Shown: piece after piece, positions 644 to 57,450 of the stretch
Layout of the letters: each line of letters begins with the position of its first letter
Position numbering within the stretch: position 1 is the stretch's first letter
Assembly: GCA_964016885.1 (NCBI GenBank)
Contig: CAXHJY010001229.1
Location: forward strand, 1 to 64,000
Length of the DNA: 64,000 bases
Reading direction: 5' to 3'
From: Eledone cirrhosa
Taxonomy: Eukaryota
Notes under the pieces: model-generated
What the model was told of the DNA's origin: nothing
The model's database searches: none
Seen by the model: the letters and a program-made list of their open reading frames with translations, nothing else
Position numbers and translations under genes: made by a program

Positions 644-688
644 AGTCATAGTTCTTTCGTCACACACTCTGTGACCTCTTCAGTGACT
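644..688 (-). ncRNA. Minimal type-I hammerhead ribozyme (mirror copy)
   Basis: Exact reverse complement of 775-819 in the left palindrome arm. Confidence 0.8.
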
Positions 689-774
689 GGGGATTTCTTC
701 TATCCTACGCCATTTTTCAAAAATGGCGTAGGATAGAAGAAAGGAAAGGCACAGAAACGAAGAAAGAAATCCCC

Positions 775-819
775 AGTCACTGAAGAGGTCACAGAGTGTG
801 TGACGAAAGAACTATGACT
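775..819 (+). ncRNA. Minimal type-I hammerhead ribozyme
   Basis: AGTCA-CTGAAGA-G-GTCACA(GAGTG)TGTGAC-GAAA-GAAC-TA^-TGACT: stem I AGTCA/TGACT, 6-bp stem II, minimal stem III; predicted cleavage after A814. Confidence 0.8.
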
Positions 820-1324
820 ATATATATATAAACAACTATCTGGTTGTGGAACCAACCAACCAACCAGAAATTTATAAATTTGTAAATTTATAAATATATA
901 TTAAATTAAATTGAAGTGAAAGCAACTGGGTGCGTGTGTTTCTTATTGGCAACATGACCCTCCCAAAGTATAACAATATTTAATATATATATATATATAT
1001 ATAAGTATATATATAATATATATGTATAAGTATATATATATATGTATAAGTATATATATATAAGTATATATAATATATGTTATATATATATATATATATA
1101 TATATATATATGTATGTATATATATGTTTATATATATATATATATATATATATGTATATATATGTTTATATATATATATATATATATATATACATGGAAA
1201 GTTATATTTAAATTGTTGGGTTACAACTAGTAAATATTTATAACTGATATAAAAGCACTCAACAAGTATTTGGAGTATATTTACGATATTAAATAAATGG
1301 AAACTATATTTATAAAACCATATT

Positions 1325-1390
1325 TATTTCATTATATATATTTCAGGGATATCATATTAACAATATGCTATGCCTTCCTCAGACAAAATA
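1325..1390 (-). ncRNA. Type-I hammerhead ribozyme in the Penelope pLTR (same sense as the RT)
   Basis: TATTTTGT-CTGAGGA-AGGCATAGCATATT(GTT)AATATGATATCCCT-GAAA-TATATA-TA^-ATGAAATA; palindromic stem III ATATATAT. Confidence 0.8.
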
Positions 1391-2706
1391 CAATATAGAC
1401 AGTTTTATAGATAAATAGATTTGACATACCGTTCAACATCGACTTGTATTTGAAAAGTTGATTTGGCAGTGAAAAAATTGTAAGCAGAAAGAAAAAAGAG
1501 AGAAAGAAGGAAAGAAAGAAAAGAAAGAAAGAAAACGAAGAAAAAGAAGAAAAAGAAGAAATGCATGTAACAAAATAGAGAGATGGAAAGATAGATAAAG
1601 AGAAGAACTTCATGTAAAGAAACAGAGATAGATATATATAGAGAGAGGAAATAGATAGAGATAGATATATATAGAGAAAAGTGGGTAGTTGTACATCCGT
1701 TGAATAAACGTATCAATGATACATTTATTTATTTATTTATTTATTTAGCTCTAGTATTAATGTAAGGGAGATATATATAGAGAGAAAAAATATAGAGAGA
1801 GAAAAAAATTTAAATAACCAGATATAGGCGAGGCGTAAAAAAACCCTATGTTTTAATGTAGAAGTATTAGTATGTATAAAAACCAGGCACTATAATGCAA
1901 ATATCAGTATTCCTGAATGAGACACGTATCCATAATGTGTGAAAAGTAATGATCTTATGTCTAGTTTTAAAAATTCATATGTTTATATGATAACTACAAA
2001 CATCGATGTGAATTTACGTGAACAACTCTGCAAATCCTAATTTTCCATGGAGAACATTCTCATTGTGCTATAAAAATTTAAGTATACATATATGCGTATA
2101 TATATACACATATATATAGAGTCTATATTAATTTTAACAATACTATTCTTGTCTTTACTCCACATGATTATCAAGCAGAAATAGAGAACAGATTTCAATA
2201 TATTAATAAAAAATATCAGAAACAAAAAAAAAATAATAACAATAATAGTAATAAATAATAATAAAATAGAAAACTAAAAAATATTACGAAAAAATATTAC
2301 ATATTAAAAATAAAAATATTAGAAAATACTACAATAATAAAAATAAACCACAAAGATCAACCCTTCGAAATTAATTGACAATATATTGCCAAGTTCATTA
2401 TAAGCATCAGAGTCGAAAACAGATAAAGCTAAAAATTATTTATCAAATCGCGTCTAGCAAAAAAACATTTCAAAAAGTTTAGGATGCCCATTTGGTCTAC
2501 ATGTGTTCTTATATTTAATATAGAAGTTTATCTAGTGTAACGTTTATTCGAAATATTAGGAGCATCAATTTTTAGGGTAGTTTAATTTTTCATGAAGAAT
2601 GTTTAAATAAAAATAAAAATAAAAATAAAAATAAAAAGAATAAAAAGAAGAAATCGAAAGATTTATCGGCTAGTTTCCCAAATAATTATAAATCAAACTA
2701 AATATA

Positions 2707-54049: not shown

Positions 54050-54955
54050 TTGTTGATATAACTATAGATTGGTCAAACATACAAAAAAAGAAAACAGCAT
54101 TGGAAAAGACTTCAAGGACAAACTCAAACACCAGCTGGTCCAAGGCAATATTGATCACAGGGAATGGGAATACCTGGCAGAAGACAAAGTGAAATGGAGA
54201 CATGTATGTATGAACCCATAACTCTAATTGGTGTCGTTGGACCGTCGTTGCCTCATACAACGTTTCTTGGGGCATTTTTAAAATCTGGCGAAGCCTATTC
54301 CCGCTCTAGGTCTGAATACGGCCAACTTCTTCCAGAGAAACAGAGAGAGAATAGAGGCAATAGAGAAGAAGTGATAAAGAGACACAAACGAAGAATTTAG
54401 TCCAGCCCTAGACTGGTACTAGATTTATCAACATCGAAATGATGAAAGGCTGAGTTGACCTCGGCAGGATTTGAACTCAGAGAACAGATAATAAATACCA
54501 CAAAGCATTTTATCCAACATTTAAACAACTCCGTCAATTCACTGCCTTGATATTAGTATTACTTTCTCGTAATTCTATTTCCTTTCTATTCTTCACACAT
54601 CTTGAAATAACTAGAAAACAAATATCTAAATTATTGGAACAGCGTTCTGTCCTCCGTCTATTTATCAAGAGAAACCCTTTGAAGATAATTTTTGCCTTGA
54701 TTTTAATTATGTATGTTATTAGCATTTTCTTCAGATCAAAACAGCTGCAGCCAGTTTTGAGGAGGGCAGGAAGTTGACAGCTGAAGACAAACATCAAAGA
54801 AGAAAGCTGTCTGCCACCCAACCACCAACTGACCTAGTACACACTTGCCCCAACTGTACCAGAGCCTGCGAGACTAGGATTGGCCTCTACAGCCACCTCA
54901 GGGTGTGCCACCACATGGAACAGGACAACAATTCTTCCCACTGATCTTCGCAAGT
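54050..54955 (+). mobile_element. RTE-BovB-like 3' end, split by later insertions
   Basis: KDKLKHQL..IDHREWEYLAEDKVKWR (54110-54200) and C2H2-type CPNCTRACETRIGLYSHLRVC (~54845-54910). Confidence 0.65.
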
Positions 54956-55169
54956 GAATAATTCACCATTCATTGGAAAGGACTATAAATGCTAAAAATG
55001 AGAGGAAAAGGAGGGAATGAGCAAGGAAGAAAGAGATGTGGACAAAGGAAGAAAGAGATGTGGAGGGGGTTAACAGACTCAACATCTAGGTCAGAGTGGT
55101 GTTTTAGCTGTGTCATGCAGACAAAATGGCAAAGGCAATTCCGCGGACAATGGCCAGTGACACCAACTG

Positions 55170-56330
55170 CAACAGCCACCCCGCATTATAGAGCTTCTTC
55201 CTTGGGCTGCTATCATTCTGAATTTAGAGAGGAGCTGGGCTGTCCAGAGTCTGAGGACGCATAAGTTCTCAACAGCAACCAATGTAAAGTGGAAATGGCC
55301 GGACAAACCCTGGTATTTGTTTGTCTTCCTGCCCTCTGCATTGCAAGCAGCAGTACCAGAATTTGTGGCTAAGGCAACTAAGCTGGAGACGGAGAACATG
55401 TCACACCATGTTGTGTCCCAGATGAGGGATTTACTTTCTTCAAAAGTGAAGAGGGTAATTCTGGCAGGGCGCTTGCTGTCTCCACGGTCGAGTCCTACTG
55501 GCTCCAGATGTGATGGGAGCATCAAGGCTCCTTCTCATTATGTTGTTGAGAGTGACATGTCGGGGGAACCAGCCAGCGCTCTGGTGGCACGATAGCGGGT
55601 GCAGGCTGAACTCATTGACAACTGCTCCATATTTATGTGGCTCATTCACGTGGAGGCTGAGGTGTTACTAAAATGCAAGTGCACTTGTCATCAAGAAGAG
55701 TACCAGTTGATGATACATGCGCTGCAGTTTAGCTACAAGGTGGAACGGAGGCAGATGAAGCAGTGTTAGTCCAAAACAGACTCAATCAGCCTGAAGGTAA
55801 ACCTGCATTTGATGTTGTCCAAGTTACGTTAGACATTTCTATACTGGAGGATGGAGGGGCCTTCACTGGTCCAGTCGGCCAGAACCTGGTTCAATCGGCC
55901 AGAACCTGGTCCAGTTGGCCAGAGCCTGCTCGAGTTCTTCGGTCATGTGAGATTCAGCCATCTTGCTGAGGACCTCTCTGATAATCTAATGTGGATTGGA
56001 GGTGAAGGCTACTGAACCTCACAGGGAACTTTGCCTGTTTCCAGTTGATGCTGTCAAAACTGACATTGCAGATGAATTCCGCACAGTGTCGAATGATGGC
56101 ATCAAGTTCACTGAGGCAATTTGAGAGAGGGTGACAAGGCACTTCTCACAGCATCAACAAGAATTTAGGAAGGGTGAAGCAGTTCTTCAGGAGGAATAAT
56201 GTCAGGTGCGTGTCAATGAGACGCAACCTCTCTGTCATCCTCAACAGGTCTGTGTGCTTGGTCTCCAGGCATTCTTGTATGGCTTTCAAGAGAATTGGAG
56301 AGCTGAGAATGCAGGCAGCGTCTTTGAGCG
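55170..56330 (-). mobile_element. Degenerate CRE-like non-LTR retrotransposon (post-RT region, CCHC, restriction-like endonuclease)
   Basis: LFLLKNCFTLPK, HPLSC..FPRH..LN, EPVGLDRGDSKRP..LIWDTT, AEGRKTNKY..VAVE. Confidence 0.75.
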
Positions 56331-57271
56331 CAATTGTATACAAAATGATTAAATTATTAGTATTTATTTAAATTTCATCAACATCAAATTTCATTCACAC
56401 AGTGTCACGCTAAATCTCCCTAAGAGCTTTGTTAAAGGTAGACATGTCTGTGGAATGCTCAGCCACTTATGTGTTAATTTCACAAGTAGGTTATTGTAAT
56501 GTTCGAACTGGAACACTCATCATCAGAACCAATGGAAGTCCAGTACACATCACTCATGTGCTGAGAAAAGAATAATGAATCTTTTATTTTACAAAGAGAT
56601 ATGTAACTTATATTAAATAACTATTAATAGGCTTGAGTATTTTTCACATAGGTTTATGGAGGAGACTTTATCAGTATGCAATATTAATTTTGAATGTGAG
56701 CAGGATGGGCCCAATTTAGTGTCATAGAAACTATGTAATATGATGCCTGAAGCCAAATGATGTCCATGTTCTTATAATAGAAGAGCTGTGGTATGGTTTT
56801 GATGGACGAGTTTGAATTAGATTTAGGAATTTTGTAGTATGTGTATAGTGGGTAGGACTCATTGTACGATTGTTTGCTTGGGTTTGTGGACAGCATGGAT
56901 TTAGTTTAGATTTGTTTATATACTAGTTAAGGCAAGTTGTGGGCTCAGTTAAGGTAAATGACAGTGTTAGTTATATTATTATCGTTATCATCAACATCAT
57001 CATCTTCATCATCAATGTCCATTTTCCACACTCGCAGGGGTTAGGGGAGTTGTCATGTTATGAAACAAGTCAGGTCAGGTGACCACATCTTGTTCATATG
57101 GATATGTATTTTCATTTGTTTTCTACAGCTGGATGTTCTTCCTAATACCAACCAAGTTACAGTGTAAACTGGGTGCTCATAACTGTGACACCAATACAAC
57201 CACCTTACAGGGTGGACCAGATGTTATTTTTGTGTCACCAGCACAACCACCTTACAAGGTGGACTGGGCAC

Positions 57272-57450
57272 TTTATACTTTGGAAGGATCATATTCCCAA
57301 TAAAAAAACACACCAGTTGAGTTTCACTTCAGTTTATTACTAGTTAAGTAACTAATCCACTCATTGGTAGTTTAGTAACCAGTTGGTTGTTTAATTGTTA
57401 ATTGTCAAAGCTCTTTTGTCTCACATCCTGTGACCTTCTCGATGTCTATT
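57272..57450 (-). mobile_element. Old copy of the pLTR family at 480-979 with a degenerate hammerhead
   Basis: ttatactttggaaggatcat..ccagttg..tttcacttca matches 486-548; GTCACA-GGA-TGTGAGAC stem with a mutated core. Confidence 0.55.

Follow-up and report, generated by a model that had tools for sequence, protein, structure and literature searches.

A 64,000-nt stretch of the Eledone cirrhosa genome (contig CAXHJY010001229.1, positions 1 to 64,000; hereafter the window) contains ten sites that resemble hammerhead ribozymes, and the question raised by this locus is what kind of element carries them. The preliminary description of this DNA proposed an abundant, microsatellite-targeting system of ribozyme-bearing Penelope-like elements (PLEs) or mini-elements that annotation based on open reading frames (ORFs) overlooks. 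The motifs very probably sit in the pseudo-long terminal repeats (pLTRs) of at least six PLE families, here called A to F, and most genomic copies are short element ends that probably arose when elements retrotransposed into (TA)n. The proposed interpretation is supported in part: what emerges is a set of unusually dense new PLE families of known clades, one subfamily of which is likely non-autonomous, together with end rules by which insertion can be tested. The occurrence of hammerheads in PLE pLTRs, (TA)n targeting, inverted arms, one-sided tails and a Hydra family in Octopus are already published, and the contribution of the present analysis over that work is quantitative.

Hammerhead motifs in the window and the genome

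All ten sites are present as originally described. Seven of them have the type I hammerhead core (CUGANGA, GAAA and UH) with helices I and II: 644-688 (-) and 775-819 (+) of family A, 1325-1390 (-) of B, 5921-6065 (-) of E, 43187-43255 (-) and 43352-43422 (+) of C, and 48246-48311 (+) of D. The other three are broken, just as had been noted: the B copy at 4575-4628 (+) has lost 10 nt of the core and stem II, the F copy at 16399-16442 (+) lacks G12, and the A copy at about 57403-57446 (-) has a disrupted core. The comparison with shuffled sequence suggested in the preliminary description places the window matches far above background with both descriptors used here. A strict descriptor found five motifs (two of A, two of C and one of D) against means of 0.0 in global and 0.02 in local 500-nt shuffles, and the observed count was reached by none of 100 shuffles; its loose setting found six, with shuffle means of 0.07 (global) and 0.11 (local). 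A second descriptor found four (two of A, one each of B and D) against a shuffle mean of 0-0.03, the count being reached by none of 60 local shuffles, and it found no motif in the reversed window. Six of the seven sites described as intact were recovered by at least one of the two descriptors.

The seventh, E, passes neither, and about 110 nt separate its two core strands. Its stems nevertheless covary across eight copies: 95% of the cells are paired, 4 of the 18 pairs have changed on both sides, the first pair of helix II occurs as G-U, A-U and G-C, and the covariation score was matched by none of 500 shuffles, a control that relatedness among copies can inflate. Within the C pair, the arm at 43187 has a weakened helix II and is partly decayed, with an active-like fold of +0.7 kcal/mol versus -5.0 for its partner. 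Two recurring types of helix III had been proposed; E carries a third, an 8-nt perfect palindrome, and 23 types were seen in a genome sample. Rfam searches at E<=5 returned no hammerhead model among 110 window matches.

That sample comprised 120 evenly spaced 10-kb stretches (1.2 Mb), taken from contigs C1-C14 only of the 3.0-Gb genome. It contained 53 motifs in 23 stretches under tight settings and 76 in 32 stretches under relaxed ones, compared with 0-1 and 1-2, respectively, in five local shuffles and none in the reversed sequence. The corresponding densities are 44 and 63 motifs per Mb (bootstrap 23-68 and 40-90), which agrees with the abundance originally claimed. By the same descriptor the window holds four motifs, or 63 per Mb, and is therefore typical of its own genome. 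Extrapolation gives a likely genome total of about 130,000-190,000 motifs (range 70,000-270,000), and it is likely that more than 100,000 PLE ends are marked by a hammerhead. This figure is a floor, since neither C nor E in the window is picked up by the descriptor used. The 76 sampled motifs fall into 21 sequence clusters.

Could such motifs be chance folds of AT-rich, microsatellite-rich DNA? Stems I are indeed short and AU-rich, single-motif folding z-scores are weak at seven of nine folded sites, and the sixth loose match, at 42015-42103, to which the 1.2-Mb sample offers a single match of 20 nt, probably arose by chance. The idea is already refuted by the controls, however, with 53-76 motifs set against 0-2 in shuffles and none in reversed sequence, and both the covariation of the E stems and the fixed position of the motif within pLTRs run counter to it, leaving it a negligible probability. 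The window motifs are type I hammerhead folds, for which cleavage is predicted.

The association with (TA)n is supported by the sample. After three array-bearing stretches and edge matches were left out, 49 of 53 non-tandem motifs had (TA)5 within 400 nt on the 3' side, compared with 23 upstream and with 42% of random positions in the same regions.

PLE open reading frames linked to each family

For family B a genome search gave 5,480 candidates; the 40 of these that were scored are 96-100% identical. One intact copy (L148; such labels denote individual genomic loci outside the window) has a 740-aa ORF between two B pLTRs, and its motifs read as a reverse transcriptase (RT) followed by a C-terminal GIY-YIG-type endonuclease (EN). 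The ORF possesses RWR, a conservative change at the N-terminal RWK position, as well as DKT, CxCX5C, CxxC and CxH, while CCHH is absent; SDKT stands in place of DKG in both L005 and L148. The CxCX5C linker and the CxxC and CxH motifs around conserved E and N also occur in the ORF end within the window (2710-3339). The unit measures 3,860 nt from core to core in L148, exceeding 3 kb because its 3' untranslated region (UTR) is long, and in L005, L007 and L008 the tail of the B pLTR leads directly into the ATG, the 5' pLTR of L008 being truncated inside the hammerhead. On the diagnostic motifs of PMC8557442, B is assigned to the Hydra clade.

Families C, D and E are joined to the same clade through EN ends, a full ORF having been seen for none of the three. 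For C, a Hydra EN lies about 1.35 kb upstream in L131, and the long copy is 96% identical. For D, the EN lies upstream on the same strand in 5 of 12 loci picked for upstream sequence, one tail enters an ORF 65-77% identical to that of B, and long copies are about 96-98% identical. For the E type, a Hydra EN with CxCX5C, CxxC and CxH is found about 700 nt upstream in L152.

Family A differs in extending upstream into a GIY-YIG ORF, and in L135 two A pLTRs flank an open frame of 1173 codons, which has a C-terminal GIY-YIG domain, a CX4CxxC linker, CCHH-type residues and DKS at the DKG position; an Atlas look-up with this ORF returned RT/GIY-YIG clusters at 0.96-0.98. The intact ORF (L135:3524-7043) also has a long Asn/Thr-rich N-terminal stretch, like the N-rich inserts of rotifer PLEs. 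Family F has an A-related ORF 347 nt upstream in L241, and its tail and upstream motif resemble those of A. By these features A and F appear to be Neptune/Nematis-type PLE ends.

Given the ORF linkage of each, every window family is, as judged by sequence, a PLE end, and the claim that the motifs are PLE-borne holds for all six. With each family linked in this way, a separate ribozyme mini-element system is not supported. Families devoid of ORFs had been considered after a tblastn search with the B protein, reaching up to 1.5 kb from each of the first 120 loci of the families, detected an ORF in only three, none of them linked; for every family except a young subfamily of E, this was reversed by the random sample and by longer stretches. 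A further outcome allowed for at the outset, that all motifs belong to catalogued PLE pLTRs with no independent short family, holds halfway: the window motifs are PLE pLTRs, yet they are unlike the single Octopus Hydra family listed in PMC8557442, and young E copies do have the character of a short family.

Oversight by standard annotation was likewise borne out. In Pfam neither of the intact ORFs (A and B) matched a family significantly, and the PLE ORF pieces of the window had no match; with Rfam also silent on hammerheads, repeat libraries based on these databases would under-call PLEs here. Hydra-type ORF fragments with 30-70% identity to B were seen in about 20 of the 120 random stretches (L151-L270), which points to many more Hydra families than the single Octopus one in PMC8557442. 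A third PLE type, with a 442-aa frame and a Pfam GIY-YIG match, occurs at L147:4604-5929 and also in L200 and L229.

Ends, tails and inverted pairs

Intact copies are laid out as pLTR (hammerhead plus tail), ORF, 3' UTR and pLTR, and the ends of shorter copies follow countable rules. The pair and end statistics given here describe the copies most similar to those of the window. Of 228 arms from families A, C, D and E, 210 have their 3' end at a TA repeat, and TATATA or ATATAT stands at that end in 67/77 arms of C, 45/49 of D, 47/49 of A and 51/53 of E. Each family has two discrete, fixed 3' ends, a tail end and a tail-less end, which are 65-140 nt apart and in B stand just before the ATG. Head-to-head pairs combine a tailed and a tail-less arm in 63 of 70 cases, with two tailed arms in only one (two loci give two pairs each). 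Neighbouring motifs in the random sample were head-to-head ten times, both partners being of the same family in nine of these, and tail-to-tail four times.

The two arms of a pair also share sequence variants, in 150 of 168 instances for A, 25 of 27 for C and 7 of 7 for E, compared with 0.49-0.70 for shuffled partners. Because arms share variants above that level, a model in which dimers join two unrelated RNAs into inverted pairs was rejected.

At the 5' side, alignment places 34 of 53 C arms at -56 to -65, at an initiator (Inr)-like site, with 8 of 53 extending beyond -120. This pile-up came from a search query without the 5' end; searches of the same unbiased design for D and E 5' ends gave no candidates, so the unbiased test stands for C only. 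Among A arms, 15 of 41 end at -57 to -75, beside a motif that we take to be YY1-like, and 20 of 41 run far upstream. Three of the four closest random-sample copies of D begin at -81 to -85. The C site matches the Inr-like TCACT of a rotifer pLTR (PMC3846280). An origin of the fixed 5' ends at splice acceptors was discarded, as AG does not precede those ends in the long forms.

These ends can be accommodated by a single scheme. The RT/GIY-YIG protein would nick both strands of a TA tract and prime one cDNA per strand, and the two cDNAs would begin at two internal sites (the tail end and the tail-less end) of a single RNA or of RNAs from one source locus. They would stop early or at the 5' end of the RNA, likely the pLTR promoter start, and would then be joined through microhomology or fold-back. 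If a single template were primed twice, once per strand and start site, the products would be head-to-head arms that share variants and have one tail between them. There is in vitro precedent in an anole PLE, where two internal RT start sites define the tail, both target strands are cut and extended, AT-rich DNA is cut, and hammerhead cleavage is protein-assisted and dispensable for insertion (PMC11167929).

Helix III of the hammerhead is palindromic in B-E, and cleavage, which would trim tandem transcripts, is predicted to require either dimer formation or assistance from protein. Perfect 8-nt palindromes in B-E give duplexes of -3.2 and -10.0 kcal/mol, and in the sample 49 of the 76 motifs, and 8 of 23 types where 1.5 would be expected, have a perfectly palindromic helix III; this frequency points to dimer-dependent cleavage as in PMC4209133. 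Where both inverted arms are long, the predicted outcome is a ribozyme caught within an extended hairpin, and for the A and C pairs the predicted folds are hairpins in which its core is buried.

Might the short copies be plain 5'-truncation debris, their pile-ups reflecting RT pausing or microhomology hot spots and no RNA start? Truncation at the 5' end is typical of PLEs (PMC8557442), D junctions show 4-5 nt of microhomology to the tail, perfect D palindromes are centred on the same site, and tailed arms end at many different points. Against this, tailed and tail-less C arms halt at one site, with an Inr-like motif shared with B, and truncation leaves unexplained the lack of long forms among 30 loci of the young E subfamily; debris seems an unlikely account, though one with some weight.

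Several observations weigh against the scheme of pLTR ends left by two-site priming. The statistics on ends and pairs were drawn from the nearest relatives of the window copies rather than from copies picked at random, and clade assignments were based on motifs and not on a tree. The linkage of F is ambiguous, its motif following a Hydra ORF in L214; as F lies downstream of an A-related ORF in L241, one of the two must be a nested insertion. Variant sharing between D arms is weak (21/34, p=0.09), and B arms have no single 5' pile-up. The helix III of A is an imperfect palindrome with a self-duplex of +1.4 kcal/mol, and the free folds of B, C, D and E favour other structures over the active-like one by 1-8 kcal/mol; hammerhead cleavage and transcription are both predictions here. 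Finally, shared variants could also arise from fold-back synthesis or gene conversion, and self-priming on an antisense template is preferred in PMC3846280.

A young E subfamily as a candidate mini-PLE

One subfamily, E-young, is about 355 nt long and begins at helix I. Among the 40 scored of 450 candidates, 35 of 44 arm matches showed 98-100% identity, and the window copy is 99.5-100% identical to copies elsewhere. The core was located in 29 of 30 loci, with only a TA repeat or the inverted arm upstream of helix I, and none of the 30 matched the upstream sequence of the long form. The ORF-linked long E type, with 1,859 candidates, is 85-91% identical to E-young. From its sequence, E-young is likely a non-autonomous mini-PLE, the only window family that fits this description, and it would represent a truncated pLTR likely copied in trans by a Hydra protein.

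It is tempting to extend this to all short copies, as an independent ribozyme-bearing mini-element system that merely shares PLE ends. The absence of long upstream sequence in E-young, the uniformity of its arms and the distance of its ORF-linked relative all favour such a system, as do the sharp 5' pile-ups in C and D and the B-like motifs of the random sample, most of which are short. However, A, B, C and D have their own ORF-linked copies of near-equal identity (96% in C and about 96-98% in D), 8/53 C arms and 20/41 A arms extend far upstream, and most of the E-type random-sample copies shown share upstream sequence. Independence would accordingly apply to no family beyond E-young, which would then be derived from a PLE; as a general account it is doubtful.

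A bolder reading, which we hold tentatively and at somewhat less than even odds, is that PLE hammerheads number one to two hundred thousand in this genome, at a density about ten times that of the printed counts found, and that the genome is breeding ORF-less mini-PLEs from them, with E-young keeping both RT start sites and amplifying now in trans. If so, the near-strict rule of one tail per pair would be the trace of twin priming with strand specificity. Introns would also acquire long RNA hairpins by the tens of thousands from the inverted pairs, and these hairpins would silence the ribozyme within them and could feed adenosine-to-inosine (A-to-I) editing.

Since the pairing of PLEs with hammerheads is known, the census describes no new system, and its value lies in scale and testability. 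Young families that include an intact ORF copy are available here (B, with copies 96-98% identical), as are thousands of insertions with countable end rules, and the likely non-autonomous 355-nt derivative would define a minimal cis-acting RNA.

Organization of the window

The region at 278-6550 is a nested cluster within TA arrays, comprising the A pair, the B element, an A-type tail, an inverted short interspersed nuclear element (SINE)-type repeat and the E pair. The A pair (423-979) is head-to-head, with a tailed minus arm (699-423) and a tail-less plus arm (720-979), both 3' ends lying at TA repeats. Site reading and descriptor agree on an intact core at 644-688, and the hammerhead at 775-819, in a putative Neptune/Nematis-type PLE pLTR, has its cut predicted after 814. 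The B copy (1190-4182, -) is a 5'-truncated element assigned to the Hydra clade, with an ORF remnant (4182-2710) frameshifted near 3350 at a G run, a 1.3-kb 3' UTR, a hammerhead in its 3' pLTR with a predicted cut at 1333, and a tail ending in (TA)n. Its tail-less inverted arm (4177-4656, +) contains the core-deleted motif. An A-type tail fragment without hammerhead follows at 4742-4830 (-), and the inverted repeat pairs 4828-5487 with 6273-6924. The young E pair consists of a tail-less minus arm (5856-6066) that begins at helix I and is 99.5% identical to a copy elsewhere, and a tailed, 5'-truncated plus arm (6079-6272), without the first core strand, that is 100% identical to another.

The decayed F pLTR (16329-16442, +) is 74% identical to an F copy downstream of an A-related ORF. 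The D insertion (48140-48349), in a putative Hydra pLTR, comprises an inverted tail fragment (48140-48177) and a plus arm (48174-48349), and the old A relic (57273-57647) has a minus arm (57436-57273, 68% identity) with an inverted tail fragment (57523-57647). More A/F-type ends without a hammerhead core, missing from the preliminary description, occur at 17668-17862 and 38754-38819, in addition to 4742-4830.

The C pair (43085-43468), attributed to a Hydra pLTR, is head-to-head, its minus arm tailed and its plus arm tail-less. It sits in the first intron of the host gene for ribose-phosphate pyrophosphokinase (PRPS; 10083-45287, -), for which seven coding exons were located: exon motifs lie at 45287, 26540, 21993, 18987, 11455 and 10122, and a further exon is in frame at 14308-14646. 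Given this intronic position, host transcripts are probably spared. When genome contigs were mapped on the pair, their summed depth was very high between 43073 and about 43472, with values of 3-10 in most bins on either side, a signal that marks the ends and gives no copy number; an empty-site joint was not clear among the mapped contigs. The predicted fold of the pair in PRPS pre-mRNA is a hairpin of -217 kcal/mol, which makes it a candidate substrate for A-to-I editing.

Other repeats include long interspersed nuclear element (LINE) fragments with RT and PHD-finger matches at 30186-31781, 37304-38367, 50730-51233 and 62609-63741, which we take to be RTE-like, and tandem copies of a 199-nt SINE-type repeat at 47024-47450 that is very common genome-wide. 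ARAGORN found no tRNAs in the window; tRNA-like matches or tRNA-derived repeat heads lie at 5124, 6572, 7818, 17319, 32494 and 52657.

Comparison with known systems

Hydra-clade PLEs, including Hydra-1_Obim of Octopus bimaculoides, share with the present elements a C-terminal EN, DKT, CxCX5C, CxxC and CxH, the absence of CCHH, a hammerhead near the 3' end and insertion into (TA)n (PMC8557442). They differ in having RWK where RWR is found here, in a length generally below 3 kb, given as a tendency, compared with units of about 3.9 kb and a 3' UTR of 1.3-1.4 kb, and in tails of 30-40 bp compared with 85-140 nt; the long, bulged helix II is a further difference. From Hydra-1_Obim itself the protein and hammerhead differ by eye, and that element is listed as "no pLTR" while a pLTR is present here. 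With Neptune and Nematis PLEs, as summarized in the same source, A and F share a C-terminal GIY-YIG, the CX4CxxC linker, which fits the CX2-5CxxC pattern of those clades, and CCHH-type residues; A departs from them in DKS at the DKG position and a long Asn/Thr-rich N-terminal insert, and the label Neptune/Nematis-type covers both clades.

The minimal and dimeric PLE hammerheads of PMC4209133 have the same type I core, extra nucleotide at 9a and palindromic helix III, and they likewise form many families per genome, mostly as singles or opposite-strand pairs 100-700 bp apart with few in full PLEs; the roughly 110 nt between the E core strands is a difference. Counts there are about 2,000-9,000 per genome, compared with the 130,000-190,000 extrapolated here with a different descriptor. 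Published counts are about 9,000 minimal motifs in Xenopus, about 4,000 in the coelacanth and, for the 28-Gb axolotl genome, up to 120,000, again with differing descriptors. A search of the octopus and cephalopod literature found no cephalopod hammerhead census, and a 2026 repeat annotation of O. vulgaris reports 31 recently active PLE families, its excerpted text never using the words hammerhead or ribozyme.

Non-LTR retrozymes (PMC7229834; bioRxiv 10.64898/2026.07.22.740005) are also short hammerhead elements that lack coding sequence, derive from pLTRs and are presumed to be mobilized by PLE proteins, and the same applies to putative non-autonomous elements of Chlamys such as MRC1 (PMC8557442). 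Unlike retrozymes, the window copies are dispersed singles and inverted pairs, E-young begins at helix I and retains the PLE tail, and no head-to-tail hammerhead array, the mark of a retrozyme, was found in the 64-kb window. Elsewhere in the genome, retrozyme-like families absent from the window form tandem arrays of 310-480 nt units with a hammerhead in each, at L191:8100-9900 (312 nt), L203:7300-9900 (about 480 nt) and L248:5400-6600 (310 nt). Finally, Poseidon_Ac in vitro (PMC11167929) shares two RT start sites that define the tail, an AT-rich target and the use of both strands; its start sites are adjacent and inside the ORF, whereas the 3' ends described here are 65-140 nt apart and those of B lie just before the ATG.

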